Source of the DNA: Candidatus Ferrigenium bremense
GTDB lineage: Bacteria > Pseudomonadota > Gammaproteobacteria > Burkholderiales > Gallionellaceae
Direction: 5' to 3'
NCBI GenBank assembly: GCA_019449635.1
Contig: JAGRPI010000002.1
Span: forward strand, 21,749 to 85,748
Length of the DNA stretch: 64,000 bases
Positions 1,185 through 47,386 of the stretch are shown piece by piece. A model generated the notes under the pieces. That model saw only the letters and a program-made list of their open reading frames with translations, did no database searches and was not told the DNA's origin. Numbering within the stretch: the stretch's first letter is position 1; every line of letters starts with the position of its first letter. The position numbers were made by a program, and so were the translations under genes.

Positions 1185-1859
1185 TCAATCTTCAATTTCG
1201 ATACACTTTTTATACTGCCCAAAGCTAGGCAACGGCCTTGAGGGATCCCACCCGCGCCACTCTTTGCCGGGGTACATCCGGGACCAATTCTGGTGAGCGC
1301 GGCGAATAAGACGCGTTAACCAAGTGCGGATCCCGTGGTGCATTGGCCTCCTCGTCTGCATCTCGAGGAAGCCAGCCAGCTCTTGAGGCGCAGTCTTCAA
1401 AAGCTGACCGATATGGTGGTCAAGCTGCCGCTGCACGTCAGGCTTGATATGCCACGACCACCTTGTCCCACCGCCCTCTAACCTGTGCCGTTGATCTGAG
1501 TAGAGCACATAGTCGTTCCAGACAACGCGCCCGGGGTTCGTCCTTGCATCCTTCAACTTGCTGTTTTCCTGGATCGGGCCACCGCCATCACTGGCAATCA
1601 GGAACCAGACATACCCGCCCTCCAGCTCATGTTTTGAGGTAGGCGCGACCACGAGGTGCGCATTCGCCAACCCCTTTTTCTTTCGCCAACTTCTTTGGTG
1701 CGGCTTCAGATCCGTGCCGTAATGCTCGCTGAATTTTGCAGCCAGACTATCAAGTTTTTCACGACTGTCGACCACCCCGCCAACCCACCAATGAAAGCCT
1801 TTAGGCACTATACGCAACAGGAATCGCTGCGCTTCAGATTGTCTTGTGAATAGGTTCAT
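1185..1859 (-). CDS. Hypothetical basic, Trp-rich protein (~224 aa) divergent from the permuted intron RNA
   Basis: Long ORF; ATG at 1859 preceded by AAAGGAG RBS (MNLFTRQSEAQ...). Confidence 0.8.
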   Translation of the reverse strand: MNLFTRQSEAQRFLLRIVPKGFHWWVGGVVDSREKLDSLAAKFSEHYGTDLKPHQRSWRKKKGLANAHLVVAPTSKHELEGGYVWFLIASDGGGPIQENSKLKDARTNPGRVVWNDYVLYSDQRHRLEGGGTRWSWHIKPDVQRQLDHHIGQLLKTAPQELAGFLEMQTRRPMHHGIRTWLTRLIRRAHQNWSRMYPGKEWRGWDPSRPLPSFGQYKKCIEIED

Positions 1860-1965
1860 TAAGTTTTCTCCTTTACGACTATAACGCAATTCAAGCGAAT
1901 CGGTTGACATAAGTCAAGCATAACTTAGTGATTGCAATACATGATTAGTTCAACTTCTATAAATA

Positions 1966-2000
1966 GGTTTTTCTGTATATGAAGGTGGTATAGAAAAACC
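1966..2000 (+). promoter_or_regulatory. Candidate extended -10 promoter for the intron RNA, inside a 9-bp inverted repeat
   Basis: TG-G-TATAGA at 1986-1994; arms GGTTTTTCT (1966-1974) and AGAAAAACC (1992-2000). Predicted start ~2001 coincides with the start of the 5' strand that pairs with the RNA tail. Confidence 0.45.
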
Positions 2001-3335
2001 ATCTTCTTTTTTGTTGAACAACATTTATAGGCACAACGTGCTGGTTTTTGGTTAGCGCATCATCGGGGATGGCGTTTCCTACTTCCTTCTTTCACCAAAG
2101 AAAGAGGAAAGCAGGGAGCGTCAACTCCGCCAGATTCCACACGTCAAGGGACGTATGTCCCGGGGTGCCAACCCCAGCTGTTGTTGCTAACAACGGCAAG
2201 CGCTGCTTTGAGCCGTGTGCAGAGAAATTTGCATGCACGGTTCAAGGACGGGGCAGCAGGGTAATCCCGCGCAAGCGGAGTAAACCTGTTGTTCCAGTCC
2301 ATGACTTACATGAAAGATGTAAGGCGTGCGACCAAGAAACGGGGATACGGAGGAAATGCCGTAAACCCTGCTCCATTAGGCAAGGAAGGAAAATCTTGTC
2401 GACGTGTGAATCGTCAACCGTGGGCTGCATGAAAGTGCAGAACGCGAGCCACCTGGGATGGCAGTCTATGCGGAAGAAATTTCTCGCATCGGGCTCATAG
2501 CGAAGTGTTAGAGAGTTCGGAGTACCTGATTGTGAACGTCGTCACGGACGGAAGCATGAAGGACTGGCTGATAGCTTAAACCGGCAAAGCACCTGCAATG
2601 GTGCAATTGGTGGAGTTGCAAAAAAGCCATTGAAAAATGGCCTGGCACTAGGGGTTGAGATACCCCGCTGCTCATCGAAACAGAGTCAATTCCGTAACCT
2701 TACTACTTTACCGCCTTCAGGAGGGTGAAATCGTGGAGATGTGCCGCGAGATAGAGGGTTGATGATCTGGATGATGTCTATGCAACGCAATAAAGATGGA
2801 AGCTAATTGGGGAAATATCAACGTTTTCGCGTGGGGTGGCACTCATGCGGTAGTCGCGTAACGAACGACCGTCAAACGTAGATATGAGAGAGTGGTCCGA
2901 ATAGAGTAAAAAACCGTTGCCCGAAAGGCGCGGTGACCCGGAACATTGGGCGATCGGCTTTGCAGCTGGTCGGAGAGTCTCGAAAGGCTGAGGTAGTGCG
3001 AAACGTGTGGAAAGACCGGGGAACCGGTACTGGTGATGTACTTGAAGGCCGCTTGGCGGCGGCTGGAGAGAGATGTAGCAACCGATGGGATCTTGACGGA
3101 TCCCATCTCAAGAAACACGGCCATTTTTGGCTAATGAATGCCCGTGAGGGTAGGACGAAGCTCGTCCATATTAAGTGGCAGTCACCGTTTAGCTGACTGT
3201 TGTTCTTCAACAAAAAAGAATGCCGTAAGGCAGGATAAGTAATGGGCGCAAGCCCGATAACGCCGGCATAGTCCCGTGCCGGAGAATCGTTCGAGGACAT
3301 AGAAGCCACCTGCAAAGGTGGCTTCTTCTTTTTTA
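2001..3335 (+). ncRNA. Circularly permuted, ORF-less group II intron ribozyme
   Basis: Canonical 34-nt DV at 2210-2243 (GAGCCGTGTGC-AGA-GAAA-TTT-GC-AT-GCACGGTTC; AGC triad). DVI 2246-2300 with bulged A2296 at -7 and terminal AT (2301-2302). Then a 23-nt spacer, then GTGCG at 2326. Many GNRA hairpins follow and a terminator closes the unit at 3301-3334. No DI upstream of DV and no DV downstream of GTGCG. Confidence 0.88.
3301..3334 (+). terminator. Intrinsic terminator of the intron RNA
   Basis: AGAAGCCACCT-GCAA-AGGTGGCTTCT (11-bp stem) followed by TCTTTTTT. Confidence 0.85.
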
Positions 3336-3574
3336 TTGTTTTGTTGTCAAGGGGTCTGCGTAATATGCACCCCCCCAACTTATTCGCGACCAACGGGAGC
3401 CCGCCATACCGTTGAATTTTGTAGTTTTCATCGCCCCCTACATGGGATAGGGAGGGGAGTGATGAGGGGCAGGGGAAGCCGCGAATGAGGCATCCCATCC
3501 CCTCGTCGTTGGGGATGGCGGCCGCCGGGGCGTTTCAAACGCCCCAAAAGGCGAAGTTCAACTCAGGGAGATTA

Positions 3575-3607
3575 AAATAAAAGACCACCTCCGAAGAAGC
3601 GGTCTTT
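3575..3607 (-). terminator. Intrinsic terminator after the 127-aa gene
   Basis: AAAGACC...GGTCTTT stem followed by a T-rich tract on the minus strand. Confidence 0.55.
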
Positions 3608-3616
3608 ACTTACTGT

Positions 3617-4000
3617 CTACGCCACGCCTGCTTTCGCACATTCCAGCGCTTCCGCCAGAGTCGCAAAACAACCCCAGTACGTCGGTCGATCCCATGCTCC
3701 ACCGTCAAGACAATGCACATCAAATCGAATCCCGTTAGGCCAAGCTTTAAACCACTCATCACAACCAATCGCTTCCCAGTAGGCTCGCCGTTGTTCTGCG
3801 TATTCGTCGGTGTGTTTTGCCAAATAAAAACCAGCCTCACAATACGACACAATATATGGCAGCCCGAAGAACTTTTGATGCGATTGCGGGCGTTGATCGT
3901 TAGGCGTGAAATCAAAACCTTTTGGCAACTTCGGATCGACAAGAATGCCCTTAATGCATCTATTGGCTTGGAACGACTTGCCATTGATAATAAATTTCAT
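3617..4000 (-). CDS. Hypothetical protein (127 aa)
   Basis: ATG with GGAG RBS, downstream terminator, conserved-looking C-terminus (FDVHCLDGGAWDRPTYWG). No function recognised. Confidence 0.7.
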   Translation of the reverse strand: MKFIINGKSFQANRCIKGILVDPKLPKGFDFTPNDQRPQSHQKFFGLPYIVSYCEAGFYLAKHTDEYAEQRRAYWEAIGCDEWFKAWPNGIRFDVHCLDGGAWDRPTYWGCFATLAEALECAKAGVA

Positions 4001-4354: not shown

Positions 4355-5755
4355 CTAGGAACACCAGATACTTACGATTGACTTCGATACGCATAACTCT
4401 GCAGCAATCTCGCGAATCGACTTACCCGTTGCCCTCAGTAAACGAGCTGTAGCGCGTTTCTTATTGTTGGATGATATGTATGCCTCACGGCTTACCATAC
4501 CGGCACTCCTGCGCCGTTCCTGTTCGCGGATTCGATGGCGTTCTGCAGCGACGTCGCCACAAATGATTGTCCGAAGCTGCCGCTGCTCTTCATCTGTAAT
4601 CTGAAACAACTGGATCAGCGTATCGTTCTTCGGCGTGTAGAGCGCCGGCATCTCCTTGCCGCCCAGTATCACTGTCCTGCCAGCAGTAAAGTCCTTCGCT
4701 TTTAAGTACAGCGTTGACAGCTCATCGCGGCGCTTAAAGTCGCCAAAACCGAACTCGCGGCACAGCTCAGCGGCCTCATGCCACACCTGGTCAGGATTGG
4801 TTGCGCCAGATAACAACAGGAAATTAAGCGACCAGAACAGCGTATTCATTGACATGCCAGCCGGCACACCACCGCGCAGCTTCATCAACGTCCGGATATC
4901 TTCGACCCGATGCCACGCAAGTTGGCGACCAGAGAAACCACGGAGTCCAGAAGACTTGTTCTTTCCGCCCGGCAACAGCTCCAGATGAGCCTTTTTCGCT
5001 TCTCGCGCTTCCCTGGCTGCGACCATCCGGGCTTTTTCTTCTTCGCTGAAAGGATGGTTTTGCTTCTTCTTGTCGAAGACCGAATCATCCATACGATAAA
5101 CCGATAGCTCCTCAAAGTCATAGCGCTTGGGCAACCCGTCATCGCCGTCGGTAAAATCAAGTACGCGAACCGTGGCGCCTGACTTCGTGTTTATTGTGTC
5201 AACAAGGCGCAACACTCGAGATGCATCCTTCGCATTGGCGTCGGCGCCGATCTCGGCAAACAGATCAACCAACATTGCTTGAGTTGCATTCCAGCGCGGT
5301 AGCGCATGGCGTGGCAATGGCTTTTCCAACAGCCATTTGAGCTGGAGGCCTCGACCGGAGTGGATCGCGATCGAGGGATAGGGAATGTGGTTTTCCTCGC
5401 ACAAATAACGAATTGCTTGGTACGCCCATTCCGGAGTGACGCCGACGTTGTAGCAATCGATGTCAACAAACAACAAGCCAAGCCTCGCAAGATTGACGAT
5501 CCGGCGATTGGGCTTTGTGAATTCAGCTTGCGAGATCCATGTGTCGCGATCTTTCGGCAGCAGCCTGATTACCTCAGGCATGTCCGGCAACCTGTAGCTG
5601 CGCTGATGCTTCCTGTTTGTATCGGGAACCTGATACAAAACTGAGAAAAAGCCGAACCTACTAATGTCATGGTAATAGCTGGCCTCGGCTAGGGGGTCGA
5701 ATAAATCGAGTTGTTCAGTAGCAGGAACGATGTCCTGCGCGACGGCAGTTGACAT
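4355..5755 (-). CDS. Plasmid-type replication initiator, AEP primase-like N-terminus plus C-terminal HTH (~466 aa)
   Basis: LFVDID (motif I), SGRGLQ (motif II-like), DASRVLRL (motif III); C-terminal GKSIREIAAELCVSKSIV HTH; RBS GAAAGGA before ATG 5755. Confidence 0.8.
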   Translation of the reverse strand: MSTAVAQDIVPATEQLDLFDPLAEASYYHDISRFGFFSVLYQVPDTNRKHQRSYRLPDMPEVIRLLPKDRDTWISQAEFTKPNRRIVNLARLGLLFVDIDCYNVGVTPEWAYQAIRYLCEENHIPYPSIAIHSGRGLQLKWLLEKPLPRHALPRWNATQAMLVDLFAEIGADANAKDASRVLRLVDTINTKSGATVRVLDFTDGDDGLPKRYDFEELSVYRMDDSVFDKKKQNHPFSEEEKARMVAAREAREAKKAHLELLPGGKNKSSGLRGFSGRQLAWHRVEDIRTLMKLRGGVPAGMSMNTLFWSLNFLLLSGATNPDQVWHEAAELCREFGFGDFKRRDELSTLYLKAKDFTAGRTVILGGKEMPALYTPKNDTLIQLFQITDEEQRQLRTIICGDVAAERHRIREQERRRSAGMVSREAYISSNNKKRATARLLRATGKSIREIAAELCVSKSIVSIWCS

Positions 5756-5782
5756 GTCCTTATTCCTTTCGGTAATAAGGAC

Positions 5783-5884
5783 TTGCACAAAACGGCGAAA
5801 GCGGTTATATTGCGAATGTCATCGCCAAACGACACGCAGCAATACCCAGGGGCTTGTCACCATAAGGTGCAAGCCCTTTCTATT
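5783..5884 (+). ncRNA. Candidate counter-transcribed antisense RNA (ctRNA) in the rep leader, with promoter and terminator
   Basis: TTGCAC-17 nt-TATATT (5783-5811); hairpin GGGCTTG-T-CACC-ATAA-GGTG-CAAGCCC (5850-5876) followed by TTTCTATTT; predicted RNA ~65 nt. Confidence 0.6.
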
Positions 5885-6269
5885 TGCTGGATTCCAGGCC
5901 CGAGATGGAGTGCTGGGCGCGGAGTTCTTTCACAGTGAGATGGCGGCGGGAGGCTTCCGCAAGCTCACTGGCTGACGGCCGGCCAGTGCGCGCCGCCTGC
6001 TGCTTAGGTGGTTTAGCCTGGATAATTGGCAGGCCGGCCAGAAAGCGAACAATCTCGTCAGGATTGTAGAGACGTTTACCAGCCAGGCGGCGGTATGGAA
6101 TGTTACCAAGCCCACCGCGCAGTCGGTCCTGGCGCAAACGAGTAAGGCCAAACGGTAAGGGAGCGCCCAGCGCACGGAAATGCGCGATGAGTTTTTCATC
6201 GGTGAGGTAGAGGGCTGCTACAGGTGCTGCGATTTGAGCCGCAGCGGGCTGTGGAAGTTGAACACGCAT
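5880..6269 (-). CDS. Excisionase/AlpA-like DNA-binding protein
   Basis: Small basic protein with Xis-like IPYRRLAGKRLYNPDEIVRF segment, located between integrase and rep. Confidence 0.6.
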   Translation of the reverse strand: MRVQLPQPAAAQIAAPVAALYLTDEKLIAHFRALGAPLPFGLTRLRQDRLRGGLGNIPYRRLAGKRLYNPDEIVRFLAGLPIIQAKPPKQQAARTGRPSASELAEASRRHLTVKELRAQHSISGLESSK

Positions 6270-6742
6270 GATGGCGAATTCCCTTTCTTTCAAAAGTTAA
6301 TTCGCCGGGTGAGTTTTTGGGTGTTGCGCGGCTGATCTGTTGGTTACTGGTCCAAGCTCACTCGCTGCCTTCACCGCAGCAATATCCTGTCGGATATGAA
6401 CGTGCTTGCCTGATTCGGCGTAACCGCCGGCTTGAAAGGCTCCTCGCTGCGGCATGCTCCGCAAAGTACCCCGTCCAATCAAGACATAGCCAAATTATAT
6501 TCATTGCTCAACAAAACACAACATCTTTTCTTTAATTTCACTTATCTCCTTTCATCCTGAAAAGAGGAAGCGAAATTTCTGTTGATTTTATTGATTTTTG
6601 CGGCAGCGGCCGGGATGCCAAACAGGAGTCGGTGTCGAGCTTTTTTATCTGCATGGCGTGCAATATGTGGAGAATGTGCGCAAGCAAATCGCCGGAAGCC
6701 TTATGCCACAAGGGTTTGAGGTGTGTTGATACTGCGGCGTTG

Positions 6743-7807
6743 TTACCGCGCAGCCTGCATACGCTCAATTCCGGCGTGCAGCTCATCAACTCCGGCGTGA
6801 TAGTACCTGGCCGCCATAGCTGGCGTCTTCCAGCCCATGATCGCCATTAGGGTGAGCATAGGGTAATGTGGCGCCATGCGTGAAGCCGCCTCGTGGCGCG
6901 TGCAGTGAAAGACGCCACCCTCAATGCCGATTTTCTTGCAAGCCGACGTAAAGGCGCGGGAAAGCCCATCAGCGCTTGTTTTGCGAACCGTCTGGAATAC
7001 AAGGGCGCTTGAGTCGAGCGCCTGCGGTAAAGTGCCCAACAATTCCATGGCGCGAGGGGAGAGGGGCACTAAGCGCTTCTTGCGCTGGCCGGATCTGCTG
7101 GATGTGTCTTTTCCCCACACTTCAACGATCCGCCGCGCCTTGTCGAGGTCGCGCCAAGCCATGCGCATCAATTCATCTTCGCGCATGCCGGTTTCGATGG
7201 CGAACTCCGCGATCACGACGTACTGCTTGTTCCGGCACTTCCTCAACTCGTCGGACAGCTTCGGCCAGATATCCGGAGGGATACGCACGTCGCGCGCCTG
7301 GCTGCCACCCGGCTTGCTGATCTTCTTGGTAGGGTTCTCGATGGCGTAACCCCAATCCCGGCGCGCTGACTCAAACACATTCGAGATGGCGATGAGTTCA
7401 TGCTTGATCGTTTGCTCAGCGACCCCACCGCCACGCTTGGATTTATCCTTCCGGCGCTGCGCGATATGGTCTGCAAAGTCCTTCGGCAAACAGCGCGAGA
7501 TCGGCCGGTCGGCGAGTGGATGACGCAACCAGGCCTTGAGGCGCACAATTTCCTGCTTGGCTCCAAGCTTCTTCAAGCTCACCTCATCAATATACCGCTG
7601 GATTAAGTCGCGCAGTGGCGTGGCATCCAGCAAGCGGGTATCATTGTGCTGCGCGCGTTTGAGGTCGGCTTCCAGCGCCTGAGCCCAGTCTTCAGCCTCA
7701 CGCATTGTCGGAAATGATTTTGATTCTCGATGCATTAGTCCGGTCGCACGATTTTTCATCTCGACCTGCGCCCGGTAGCTACTTTTTCGTTTCTGGATCA
7801 TTGCCAT
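6743..7807 (-). CDS. int: Tyrosine recombinase (phage-type integrase)
   Basis: ETGMREDEL (catalytic R), FHCTRHEAAS (HxxR), MGWKTPAMAARYY (W/Y); adjacent to the att site. Confidence 0.95.
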   Translation of the reverse strand: MAMIQKRKSSYRAQVEMKNRATGLMHRESKSFPTMREAEDWAQALEADLKRAQHNDTRLLDATPLRDLIQRYIDEVSLKKLGAKQEIVRLKAWLRHPLADRPISRCLPKDFADHIAQRRKDKSKRGGGVAEQTIKHELIAISNVFESARRDWGYAIENPTKKISKPGGSQARDVRIPPDIWPKLSDELRKCRNKQYVVIAEFAIETGMREDELMRMAWRDLDKARRIVEVWGKDTSSRSGQRKKRLVPLSPRAMELLGTLPQALDSSALVFQTVRKTSADGLSRAFTSACKKIGIEGGVFHCTRHEAASRMAPHYPMLTLMAIMGWKTPAMAARYYHAGVDELHAGIERMQAAR

Positions 7808-7821
7808 GTTTTTTCTACAAC

Positions 7822-7842
7822 CCCGCCAAAAGCCCGCCAAAA
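7822..7842 (+). repeat. Paired 10-bp direct repeats, likely integrase arm-type sites
   Basis: CCCGCCAAAA at 7822-7831 and 7833-7842, between the int start and att. Confidence 0.45.
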
Positions 7843-7898
7843 CTCAACGGAGTTTATTTTAAGTGATTGATAGAAAAAGGGCAAATAAAAAATAAACT

Positions 7899-21398: not shown

Positions 21399-23243
21399 CT
21401 ATTGATTCGCCGCATCCTCGATTACCCTGAGAAACTCATCGCCATAGCGCGTCAGCTTGTTCTGTCCGACGCCGCTGATCCGGCCCAGTTCGTCCAGGCT
21501 GGCGGGGCGCTGGTTGAGGATTTCCAGCAGGGTGCTGTCGTGGAAGATGACGTAGGGCGGCACGCCCTGTTCACGGGCGAGTTCCGTGCGCTTGGCCTTG
21601 AGCGCGAGCCACAGGCGGTCTTCGCTCGCGCCGGCAAACGGTTCGCGTGACTTTGCATTTCTTTGGGCCTTACGCTCGGCGCGCTGCGCCTTGCGCTTGG
21701 CCGGGTCGGCGTCGCGGCGCAGCCAGACTTCCTGTTCGCCGCGCAGCACCGGGCGGGCGGCTGGAGTGAGTTTCAGACCACCGTAGGCTTCGATGTCGGC
21801 TTCCAGCAGGCCGCCCGCCACCAGTTGGCGATACACGCCGCTCCATTGCGCGGGGCTGATCTCCTTGCCGATGCCGAAGGTGGAAAGGGTGTCGTGATTG
21901 AATTTTTCGACCCGTTCGGTGAGCTTGCCGGTCAGCACGTCGGCCAAGTGCCCCGCGCCGAAGCGTTGCCCGGTGCGGTACACGCAGGACAACGCCATCC
22001 GCGCGGCCTCGGTGGCATCCCAGGTGTCCACCGGCTCCAGGCAGTTGTCGCATGCGCCGCAGTTGCCCGGGTGCTCCTCGCAGAAATAGCGCAGCACGGT
22101 TTGATGGCGGCAGGCGGTGGATTCGCAGTAGCCGAGCAGCGCGTCCAGCTTCTGCCGCTCCAGCCGCTTGCGTTCCTCCGGGGCGTCGCCGCCGGCTATC
22201 ATCTGGCGCATCGACACCACATCGCCCAGGCCGTAGGCCAGCCAAGCGTTGGCGGGCAAGCCGTCGCGCCCGGCGCGGCCGGTTTCCTGATAGTAGCCTT
22301 CCATGCTCTTGGGCAGGTCGAGATGGGCGACGAAGCGCACATTGGGTTTGTCGATGCCCATACCGAACGCCACGGTGGCGACCATCACCACGCCTTCCTC
22401 GCGCAGGAAACGGCTCTGATTTTTGCTGCGTGTCACGGTATCCAGCCCGGCGTGGTAGGGCAGCGCATCCCAGCCGCGCTCCTTGAGCCAGGCAGCGGTT
22501 TCCTCCACTTTCTTGCGCGACAGGCAATACACGATGCCGGAATCGTTTGCATGTTCCGTCTCAAGGAAATCCTGCAACTGATTGCGCGCATTGGATTTTT
22601 GTGTGACACGGTAGCGGATGTTGGCGCGGTCGAAACTGGAGACGAACTGGCGTGCCTGTTCCAGTGCCAGCCGTTCGACGATCTCGCCGCGCGTCGGGGT
22701 ATCTGCCGTCGCGGTGAGCGCGATGCGCGGCACGGCGGGGAATCGTTCGTGCAATACCGTCAGTGCGCGGTACTCGGGGCGGAAGTCGTGCCCCCATTGC
22801 GAGACGCAATGCGCCTCGTCGATGGCGAACAAGGCCAGCCCGGAAGTTTCCTGAATTTGTTCCAATAAGGAGAGGAAGCCGGGCATCAGCAGGCGTTCCG
22901 GAGCGACATACAGCAAGTCGAGTTCGCCGCGCAGCAGACGGCCTTGCACCTCGCGCGCGGCATCGGCGCTGATGCTGGAATTGAGGAAGGCCGCTCTCAC
23001 GCCGATCTGGATGAGTGCATCCACCTGGTCCTGCATCAGCGCGATCAGCGGCGACACCACGATGCCCGCACCCGGCCGCAACAGCGCGGGAATCTGGTAG
23101 CACAGCGATTTGCCGCCGCCGGTCGGCATCAGCACCAGCGCGTCGCCACCCGCCGCGACATGCTCGACGATGGCCTGCTGCTCGCCGCGAAAGGCGGCAT
23201 AGCCGAATACGTCGCGCAGGATCTGCTGTGGGGTGGATGTCAT
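21399..23243 (-). CDS. recQ: ATP-dependent DNA helicase RecQ
   Basis: [35 protein letters not shown]-terminal HRDC domain. Confidence 0.97.
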
Positions 23244-38233: not shown

Positions 38234-38344
38234 GCCAACCGTCACGCAAAACTCGTGATGCGAGTTTAGTAGCTCGGAGTTCAAGGCGGACAACCGCCCC
38301 CAGTGCGGTTTTTTTACGTCCGTAAGCATGGCAGGCCAAGTTTT

Positions 38345-38415
38345 GGCGGGCTGTGCGGGGCATCTTCGGATGCGCCGGTTCCTTGACCCGGTCTACTAAC
38401 CTGCACAGTTCCGCC
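38345..38415 (+). ncRNA. C4-type antisense RNA (P1/P7 c4-like)
   Basis: Three-way fold GGCGGGCTGTGCGGG/CCTGCACAGTTCCGCC, GCATC-TTCG-GATGC and CCGG-loop-CCGG. Unpaired TCCTTGA and CTACTAA match target pairs upstream (38264-38286) and downstream (38421-38461). Confidence 0.8.
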
Positions 38416-38469
38416 TCCTCGTTTAGTAGCGGGGGAGCGGGAAATTCAAACCGTTCAAGGAGAATTACC

Positions 38470-46901: not shown

Positions 46902-46978
46902 TGGGGTGGCTGATGGGACTCGAACCCACGACAACTGGAATCACAATCCAGGACTCTACCAACTGAGCTACAGCCACC
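46902..46978 (-). tRNA. tRNA-His(GTG)
   Basis: Full cloverleaf with G-1, anticodon GTG, CCA. Confidence 0.97.
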
Positions 46979-47060
46979 ACTGATGAAGCAATTAGCCATT
47001 CGGCAGAGCCGATAAACAACATCGGCGAGCCGCTGGTTATGAACTTTGCTTGTCTGACAC

Positions 47061-47137
47061 TGGCGTGCCCGACAGGAATCGAACCTGTAACCCCCAGCTT
47101 AGAAGGCTGGTGCTCTATCCGGTTGAGCTACGGGCAC
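47061..47137 (-). tRNA. tRNA-Arg(TCT)
   Basis: Full cloverleaf, anticodon loop CTTCTAA, CCA. Confidence 0.97.
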
Positions 47138-47309
47138 AATTCTTTTCTCTATAAATCCAGATTTCATCCCAACTGCTGCGTTGCGTAAAAAATTTCTTGC
47201 TTGCATATAAAGCATATGCGGCGCTGCGAAATTTTTTCCACGCCCTGCATTTGGGCGAACTCTGAATTTCTAGAGCCACCCTAGGGCTAATTAAAAAGCT
47301 GCTGAAACC

Positions 47310-47386
47310 TGGTCGGGGTGGAGAGATTCGAACTCCCGACATCCTGCTCCCAAAGCAGGCGCGCTACCAGGCTACGCTACACCCCG
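47310..47386 (-). tRNA. tRNA-Pro(TGG)
   Basis: Full cloverleaf, anticodon loop TTTGGGA, CCA. Confidence 0.97.

Follow-up and report, generated by a model that had tools for sequence, protein, structure and literature searches.

What kind of RNA carries the end of a group II intron ahead of its beginning? The question is raised by a stretch of DNA from Candidatus Ferrigenium bremense (Gallionellaceae), the 64,000 nucleotides (nt) at positions 21,749–85,748 of contig JAGRPI010000002.1 (assembly GCA_019449635.1), hereafter the window. Within it, positions 2001–3335 had been proposed, from the letters and a list of open reading frames (ORFs), to hold a stand-alone group II intron that lacks an ORF and has its domains in circularly permuted (CP) order. 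With a probability of roughly 80%, we conclude that ~2040 to ~3330 of the forward strand is a CP group II ribozyme which, together with a divergently oriented acpG gene, forms a module on an integrative mobile element. That the CP RNA gene at this locus is real, conserved and transcribed is shown by the analyses below. The RNA is a divergent sub-type of a ribozyme class known since 2021 and no new category; this sub-type, whose catalytic core looks canonical and which has longer arms as well as a helix formed by a split domain 4, is previously undescribed.

Group II domains in permuted order

The Rfam model of group II introns (RF00029, Intron_gpII) matches the window at 2208–2302 on the forward strand, with 52.9 bits, the gathering threshold being 40 bits (E = 1.5e-7 over the full 64 kb). 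Domain 5 (D5; 2210–2243, forward strand) is 34 nt long and includes the AGC catalytic triad, a 2-nt AY bulge (AU or AC) and an invariant GAAA tetraloop. Six pairs of its helix (helix 7 of the alignment described below) covary, and in half of the relatives the triad reads CGC, with the partner U replaced by G, i.e., a covariation from A-U to C-G. Domain 6 (D6; 2246–2300, forward strand), which belongs to the same match and has a covarying basal stem, pairs GGAC at 2246–2249 with GTCC at 2297–2300, and GGGGCAGCAGG at 2250–2260 with CCTGTTGTTCC at 2285–2295. Between these two stems bulges the candidate branch point, A2296, four pairs plus two nt ahead of the 3′ splice site and 7 nt from the 3′ end. 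The final two intron nucleotides, AU, occupy 2301–2302 (3′ splice site 2302/2303, forward strand) and are followed by a linker of 23 nt (2303–2325, forward strand), after which the 5′ splice-site motif GUGCG begins at 2326 (2326–2330, forward strand). The D5 and D6 pairings, A2296, the AT dinucleotide, the 23-nt spacer and the GTGCG were each verified on the sequence, and all stand where they had been placed in the original prediction. D5 and D6 thus have the hallmarks of canonical group II introns (a 34-nt D5, and a bulged A located 7–8 nt from an AY end), yet both lie 5′ of D1, which leaves the two splice sites reversed and internal to an RNA that stands alone between acpG and a terminator.

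This arrangement is not peculiar to the window. Thirty close homologues of AcpG, a protein reported beside CP group II ribozymes, were found in metagenomes, and 11 further distinct loci were recovered around AcpG homologues, giving an alignment of 12 sequences (A3); a thirteenth locus (L154) was found later. The recovered loci display a gene-free gap of ~1.2–1.9 kb beside acpG, which holds the same RNA on the opposite strand, and the aligned sequences are 56–68% identical to the window, with conservation extending from ~1979 to ~3200. The order D5, D6, linker, D1, D2, D3 is common to all related loci. The basal stem of D6 occurs as GGAC/GUCC, GGUC/GACC or GAGC/GCUC, and the bulged A is present in all 12 sequences, counting one (L149) as re-read: aberrant in the alignment as first placed, this locus has a short D6 (GGUC...A GACC AU) and a 47-nt linker when read again. 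The terminal dinucleotide is AU in 11 sequences and UU in the remaining one, and GUGCG at the 5′ splice site is invariant (12/12).

The strength of this conservation was evaluated from base-pair covariation. RNAalifold predicted 195 pairs and compensatory change at 128 of these; the pairing between exon-binding site 1 (EBS1) and intron-binding site 1 (IBS1) was then added, and the whole was counted independently (201 pairs in total). As controls, pairing partners were slid by 1–3 columns, and 500 shuffles were generated. Paired cells reached 92.9% (vs. 41–44% in the slid controls), compensatory changes were seen at 130 of the 201 pairs (vs. 45–54), and the covariation score was 0.51 (vs. ~0.10), values that none of the 500 shuffles attained. 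Together with the same arrangement in 13 loci, covariation of this strength indicates more than chance resemblance. Indels that would break any reading frame occur throughout the alignment.

The domains downstream of the linker were identified from covariation and motifs (EBS1, epsilon′, the junction between D2 and D3 or J2/3, and the base of D3), rather than from Rfam. Domain 1 (2326–2810, forward strand) comprises many covarying stems (helices 11–26). One of its arms (2673–2773), in which 7 of 7 helix pairs covary, bears a hairpin at 2697–2726 whose loop holds EBS1 (GCCUUC, 2713–2718), and this site pairs with UAAGGC at 2320–2325, the end of the linker. The pair at position −1 is CG in 7 sequences, UA in 3 and UG in 2, and that at position −2 is GC in 9 and AU in 2. 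By this covariation, D1 recognises the 3′ end of the linker as a 5′ exon. An invariant CUUUAC in the same loop was also considered as EBS1 and rejected, as the IBS varies while CUUUAC is fixed and GCCUUC covaries. A candidate epsilon′ (GC, 2645–2646) lies opposite the epsilon GC at 2328–2329. The linker itself folds as a 7-bp hairpin (CUUACAU/AUGUAAG), its last 5–6 nt (2320–2325) being IBS1; among the relatives it measures 16–47 nt, with unrelated and mostly hairpin-forming sequences. Outside IBS1 it is freely variable, the pattern that would be expected of an “exon” that needs only to be bound.

Further downstream, a candidate domain 2 (2815–2885, forward strand) is delimited by the covarying helices 2815–2825/2876–2885 and 2826–2831/2866–2871. 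It is followed by a purine-rich candidate J2/3, GAGAGAGU (2886–2893, forward strand), which is near-invariant (columns 1079–1086 of A3), and by a candidate domain 3 (2894–2989, forward strand) with covarying helices at 2894–2898/2986–2989, 2904–2906/2979–2981 and 2913–2916/2931–2934, the base of which resembles an E-loop (CGAAUAG opposite CGAAAG). Immediately after D3, the segment 2992–2999 pairs back to 2200–2207, just ahead of D5 (helix 6, forward strand; 5′ and 3′ strands of D4, respectively). This helix has eight pairs, six of them with changes on both sides, and is 96% paired across the alignment. Lying between D3 and D5, i.e., in precisely the usual place of D4, it lets the molecule be read as an intron that was cut open within D4 and joined up through its exons.

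Two structured arms flank this core. The 5′ arm (2044–2199, forward strand; helices 2–5, with compensatory changes) consists of four hairpins, a long one at 2065–2128 and shorter ones at 2148–2161, 2162–2175 (loop UGCCAA) and 2178–2195 (loop UGCUA), the last two having loops of the GCCA type; on comparison of the sequences these hairpins may be analogues of the P1 and P2 of the published class. The 3′ arm (3000–3200, forward strand; helices 29–35, most with compensatory changes) has six, at 3015–3028, 3041–3070 (with a UUGGCG loop region), 3084–3107 (loop UUGACG), 3139–3152, 3153–3167 and 3178–3200. A predicted staple of five pairs joins the arms (helix 1, GCAUC at 2057–2061 with GAUGU at 3072–3076, forward strand); it is 100% paired, two of its pairs showing compensatory change. 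Candidate loop–loop contacts link 5′-arm GCCA loops with a complementary UGGCA in the terminal loop of D2 (2837–2841), which may correspond to the P2–D2 pseudoknot of the published class, and UGCCAA with UUGGCG of the 3′ arm, which may correspond to its pairing of P1 with the 3′ end. The D2 loop reads UGGCA or UGGU in 8 of 11 sequences, the other three being non-complementary.

The transcription unit ends as had been proposed: a terminator scan found an intrinsic terminator at 3301–3335 (forward strand), where an 11-bp stem (hairpin 3301–3326) precedes a T-run, an RNA contig reaches 3326, and one relative (L009) has an equivalent terminator. On the other side, a near-invariant motif, ATGAAGGTGGTA (= ATGAAGGTRGTA), found at 1979–1992 and in 11 of the 12 aligned loci, is a candidate promoter or operator, to which we assign no strand. 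Separately, a 15-nt direct repeat (TCTTCTTTTTTGTTG/TCTTCTTTTTTATTG) was observed at 2002–2016 and 3324–3338, its copies being the T-tracts after hairpins 1981–2006 and 3301–3326; the former hairpin is terminator-like in the window but not in the relatives.

The claim that the unit is devoid of a reverse transcriptase (RT) ORF also held, as the ORFs inside 2001–3335 have no Pfam match, and neither gene calling nor the searches of neighbour genes at the window and the related loci turned up an RT gene. With D5 and D6 matched by Rfam 5′ of an invariant GUGCG, with the permuted order kept under covariation in 13 related loci, and with EBS1 covarying with the 3′ end of the linker, the reading as a stand-alone, ORF-less CP group II RNA is upheld. 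Other routes to relatives were less productive: phage and plasmid collections contained no BLAST match to the locus, 185k species genomes and IMG/VR yielded no relatives in a protein-pattern scan, and a DNA-pattern scan of genomes and viral contigs with GGAGCGYCAACTCC...CCAG returned 120 + 12 loci, all of which nhmmer identified as chance matches.

Transcription and the predicted back-splicing reaction

A freshwater-sediment metagenome contains the exact sequence at very high depth, and three metatranscriptomes from that study contain it as well. RNA contigs cover 2274–2585, 2346–2800, 2624–2814 and 3169–3326, at depths similar to those of neighbour genes such as glgP. Coverage is patchy and does not look like uniform DNA carry-over. 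The CP RNA is transcribed in situ; these RNA assemblies show transcription and say nothing on processing. As side observations, a contig of one run (X4, 2297–2457) begins right after the branch A2296, the ends of contigs being no evidence of RNA ends, and runs X2 and X3, two of the three, have several-fold greater contig depth over the D1 portion 2401–2800 than over D5–D6 and D2–D3, which may reflect either a stable processed fragment or an assembly effect.

What such a transcript would do can be proposed from its layout, which runs from the 5′ arm through the 3′ strand of D4, D5, D6, the 23-nt linker, D1, D2, D3 and the 5′ strand of D4 to the 3′ arm. The 2′-OH of A2296 would attack the phosphate 5′ of G2326, yielding an intermediate with a 2′-5′ branch, while the 5′ splice site would be held by the pairing of EBS1 (2713–2718) with IBS1 (2320–2325) and by the epsilon–epsilon′ contact. 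The freed 3′-OH of C2325 would then attack the 3′ splice site after U2302. The expected products are a closed circle of 23 nt, in the form of a mini-hairpin (junction ...UAAGGC|GACUUA...), and a branched RNA of ~1.27 kb with two arms; processing in vivo would yield reads carrying GTAAGGCGACTTAC. By homology with the five CP ribozymes tested so far, there is good reason to expect that the RNA back-splices to a 23-nt circle and a branched RNA in this way.

A number of observations weigh against this interpretation, or against parts of it. The 23-nt linker is shorter than the circles tested so far (32–86 nt), and IBS1 overlaps the linker hairpin, which creates competing structures. The original prediction expected Rfam to place D5 and D6 upstream of D1–D4; the former matched, but the group-II-D1D4 models have no match in 1700–3700 even at E <= 10, and relaxed thresholds revealed no further group II feature there besides the RF00029 match. 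The GCCA–UGGC loop contacts show no covariation, three lineages having an uncompensated G-to-A change. The candidate promoter ascribed to the unit was not borne out, a sigma-70 scan of 1800–3500 having returned neither a consensus nor a promoter. At the RNA level, the contig 2274–2585 spans the linker unspliced, and no back-splice or branch joints were reported in the RNA runs, which were available as assembled contigs only. Processed forms also went undetected in vivo in P. naphthalenivorans, where only unprocessed RNA was seen (Roth et al., 2021; PMC8637638).

The last of these observations are what would be expected if the RNA were a true CP homologue that does not perform branching back-splicing in the cell, being instead either hydrolysed to linear D5–D6 and D1–D4 pieces or kept unprocessed, as a structured scaffold that serves AcpG or the mobile element. 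An intact linker within an RNA contig and the unprocessed RNA of Roth et al. (PMC8637638) both accord with such a fate, as does the finding that minor alterations around D6 or the 5′ splice site turn CP introns hydrolytic. However, assembled contigs are unable to exclude processed forms, and selection has kept the bulged A, the geometry of D6, GUGCG and the EBS1–IBS1 pairing in 12 sequences, all of which would be superfluous for a mere scaffold. We consider this alternative unlikely, and retain back-splicing as the expected reaction.

AcpG and the elements that carry the module

The gene divergent from the RNA lies at 1185–1859 on the reverse strand, encodes 224 amino acids (aa) as called and starts with an ATG at 1859 after AGGAG, ~350 nt from D5. 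Its product aligns with TTHC007 of Thermus thermophilus over 192 aa (BLASTP, 23% identity, E = 6e-4), and a profile of its close relatives (A1) matches a Thermus AcpG (218297332) over its full length (E = 6e-12). TTHC007 in turn matches, with E-values up to 2.6e-14, intermediate members of a wider family, which that profile recovers as 343 representative clusters at E <= 1e-3. From this alignment and these profile matches, the product of 1185–1859 is identified as a member of the AcpG family. The association with acpG was found in all related loci, close homologues lying beside the same RNA. The original prediction had named the class reported by the Breaker laboratory while overlooking this neighbour, and it is the neighbour, a protein reported beside CP group II ribozymes, that assigns the RNA to that known class rather than to two broken introns.

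As for what AcpG does, Pfam, NCBIfam, PADLOC and PHROGs hold no match to it, and a literature search for later work on the protein found nothing. An AlphaFold (AF2) model (m9da1b5ab4aaa; pLDDT 88.8, pTM 0.80) predicts a mixed alpha/beta protein. Foldseek of this model against PDB and BFVD returned no significant neighbour, in keeping with the published description of AcpG as unlike any known protein; its scattered weak matches to viral RNA-dependent RNA polymerases were discarded, their scores not being credible. If the model is correct, the fold may be new. No catalytic-looking residues are conserved in the wider family, and one could speculate that AcpG is an RNA-binding helper or chaperone that replaces the missing maturase.

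The genomic surroundings point to mobile elements. In the window, the module stands next to glgP, beside a replication protein (4355–5788, phrog_9432) and a tyrosine integrase (6743–7840), which fits the proposal that the RNA is cargo of an integrative replicon. Among the relatives, the module is located on an IncQ-like RepC/Toprim replicon (L144), on a Replicase/PriCT element with AlpA (L151) and in integrase islands (L146, beside a tRNA, and L148), and at other loci it often adjoins toxin–antitoxin pairs, or McrBC, SIR2 or NYN genes. This steady association with plasmids and integrative elements suggests that the reaction of the CP RNA plays a part in the biology of such elements.

Several gene clusters observed near the module deserve separate mention: a thymidylate synthase with aGPT-Pplase3/ADDT, of the kind found in phage-type DNA modification (L009, 5524–8296), SIR2_2 with DegT (L149, 271–2263), McrBC (L150, 247–1605) and, on the IncQ-like element (L144), a DUF4258/HTH toxin–antitoxin pair at 1511–2282, with the RepC/Toprim/AAA_25 replicon at 4976–7894. 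Elsewhere in the window, a C4 antisense RNA, which we take to be an immunity RNA of the P1/P7 phage type, is matched at 38339–38421 on the forward strand (RF01695, 61.9 bits vs. a gathering score of 45) and suggests a prophage-like region; a cluster of three tRNAs lies at 46905–47386 on the reverse strand (RF00005, 66–72 bits).

It is possible to go one step further and picture acpG and the CP ribozyme as a plasmid or integrative-element module in which back-splicing is an act of activation: excision of the circle would free EBS1 and the active site, and the branched ribozyme with AcpG, or else the circle (17–47 nt), would then act in trans on another nucleic acid. We hold this scenario to be distinctly unlikely. 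Were it true, the module might control replication or copy number, keep out competing elements or defend against phages, and the element-specific, covarying EBS1/IBS1 sequences would set the specificity for the target.

Place among known group II systems

The class to which we assign the window RNA was defined from ~290 CP group II RNAs of ~900 nt (Roth et al., 2021, iScience; PMC8637638). Its members have the order P1-P2-D5-D6-linker-D1-D2-D3-D4 and never an ORF, GGGCG and NU as 5′ and 3′ splice-site motifs, a D5 in which the A of the AGC triad is unpaired and the bulge is UN, and two class-specific pseudoknots (P2–D2 and P1–3′ end). They include Comamonas testosteroni Cte 1 as well as RNAs from the T. 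thermophilus HB8 chromosome and pTT8. Five of them back-splice in vitro, releasing circles of 32–86 nt and branched RNA, and AcpG (TTHC007), a protein of ~260 aa that resembles nothing known and has no function assigned, is often encoded immediately upstream and divergently (PMC8637638). More recently, the cryo-EM of a Comamonas member was presented (2026 preprint). The window RNA resembles this class in its domain order, reversed and internal splice sites and absence of an ORF; in additional hairpins that precede D5 and bear GCCA-type loops and in the short, variable, often hairpin-forming linker; in a purine-rich J2/3 (for which a published CP RNA has GGGAGAGUG as equivalent) and an E-loop-like base of D3; and in an adjacent, often divergent acpG and locations on plasmids and chromosomal islands. 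Its 3′-terminal AU also fits NU.

The differences are nonetheless substantial. The 5′ splice site is GUGCG (12/12) instead of the published GGGCG. In D5 the triad is paired, the bulge is AY and the loop is a GAAA tetraloop; in published members the A is unpaired, the bulge is UN and the loop is of the YUAAUN type. The window type further has the covarying 8-bp helix between the pre-D5 and post-D3 segments, arms of ~160 nt (5′) and ~200 nt (3′), a conserved core of ~1.2 kb vs. ~0.9 kb, linkers of 16–47 nt, and an AcpG merely 23% identical to TTHC007. The signature strings CAACUCC, GGUUCAAGG and AGUCCAU occur nowhere in the published alignment, and the rows of that alignment covered here have GGGCG with YUAAUN-type or extended D5 loops. 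GGGCG is, however, a consensus feature of the published set and lies outside the definition of the class, which is by domain order.

Additional loci narrow the gap between the two types. Against a published member, the window-family profile shows weak but collinear similarity, at the 5′ splice site and D1 start and in a block that includes AGUAGCGGUA..UAA.U.GGGAAG and the motif AGUAGCGGUAnnnUAAnUnGGGAAG. Among AcpG proteins more distantly related to that of the window, P0035 (L154) flanks an RNA of the GUGCG type, while P0039 (L153, minus strand upstream of 961) and P0043 (L152, a Burkholderiales bin, minus strand upstream of 619) flank RNAs of the GGGCG type with hexaloop D5s (UUAAUC and UUAGUA, respectively). 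With nhmmer, L153 matches the window-family profile (E = 3.9e-16) and L152 does not; RF00029 detects several loci of the GUGCG type, and those of the GGGCG type go undetected. On sequence, then, L153 is an intermediate that links the two sub-types.

These results bear on whether the window type could have arisen when a canonical intron was permuted independently, so that its likeness to the published class would be one of convergence. Such an origin would account for GUGCG and the canonical D5, in place of which the published consensus has GGGCG and a D5 with a UN bulge, an unpaired A and a hexaloop, as well as for the weak sequence similarity to published members. Yet both types have partners of the AcpG family, loops of the GCCA/UGGC type and the J2/3–D3 motifs in common, the nhmmer matches are collinear and include AGUAGCGGUAnnnUAAnUnGGGAAG, and L153 unites GGGCG and a hexaloop D5 with detectable similarity to the window family. 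An independent origin thus appears very improbable, and we conclude that AcpG-linked CP ribozymes of the GUGCG and GGGCG types form a single evolutionary assemblage. Scarcely credible, finally, is a functionless wreck in which D5–D6 of one ordinary intron abut D1–D3 of another, for although D5 and D6 are fully canonical and match the ordinary-intron Rfam model with no Rfam match to D1–D4, the relatives retain the permuted junction and a short variable linker in 13 loci from different samples and contexts, the linker and EBS1 covary, the segments before D5 and after D3 are held together by a covarying helix, there are no RT remnants, and AcpG co-occurs. The original prediction had named such broken introns in homologous loci as its own refutation, and the relatives turned out not to show them.

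These RNAs matter in several respects. Few large bacterial ribozyme classes have proven chemistry but no known biological role, and the CP group II ribozymes are one of them. The GUGCG sub-type widens the class, and its canonical D5 and 5′ splice site link the derived published CP RNAs to ordinary introns, while the split-D4 helix suggests how the permutation originated, namely from an intron opened where the ORF normally sits. The linkage to AcpG across very divergent RNAs strengthens the case for a protein and an RNA that work together, and the recurrent placement on small replicons and integrative elements, near toxin–antitoxin and restriction-like genes, offers concrete functional settings. 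Also of practical interest, for circular-RNA engineering, are natural “exons” of 16–47 nt and the compact stapling of the 5′ arm to the 3′ arm.

Beyond this class, the closest comparison is with canonical bacterial group II introns (RF00029; GUGYG...AY), with which the window RNA shares D5 and D6, a branch A 7 nt from the end, GUGCG, epsilon–epsilon′, EBS1–IBS1 and J2/3. Unlike these introns, it has D5–D6 before D1, contains no RT/maturase ORF in D4 and interrupts no gene, and neither lariat excision nor self-transfer to a new site would be possible. Engineered permuted introns are built on the same plan. The artificial permuted group II intron of Jarrell (1993) was likewise cut open in D4 and joined across its exons, and splicing of this design, as of later constructs of the “PIE” type for circular RNA, yields an exon circle plus branched RNA. 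Its split-D4 helix makes the window RNA a natural counterpart of that design, from which it differs in being natural and conserved, and in having arm structures, a partner protein and a 23-nt “exon”. Lastly, HYERs and other ORF-less ribozymes derived from group II introns, together with the trans-splicing introns of organelles, likewise have a core without an intron-encoded protein and a modular assembly of D1–D4 with D5–D6. HYERs, however, keep the canonical domain order and are hydrolytic in trans, and the split introns of organelles join real coding exons, whereas the pieces of the window RNA lie on one permuted transcript.

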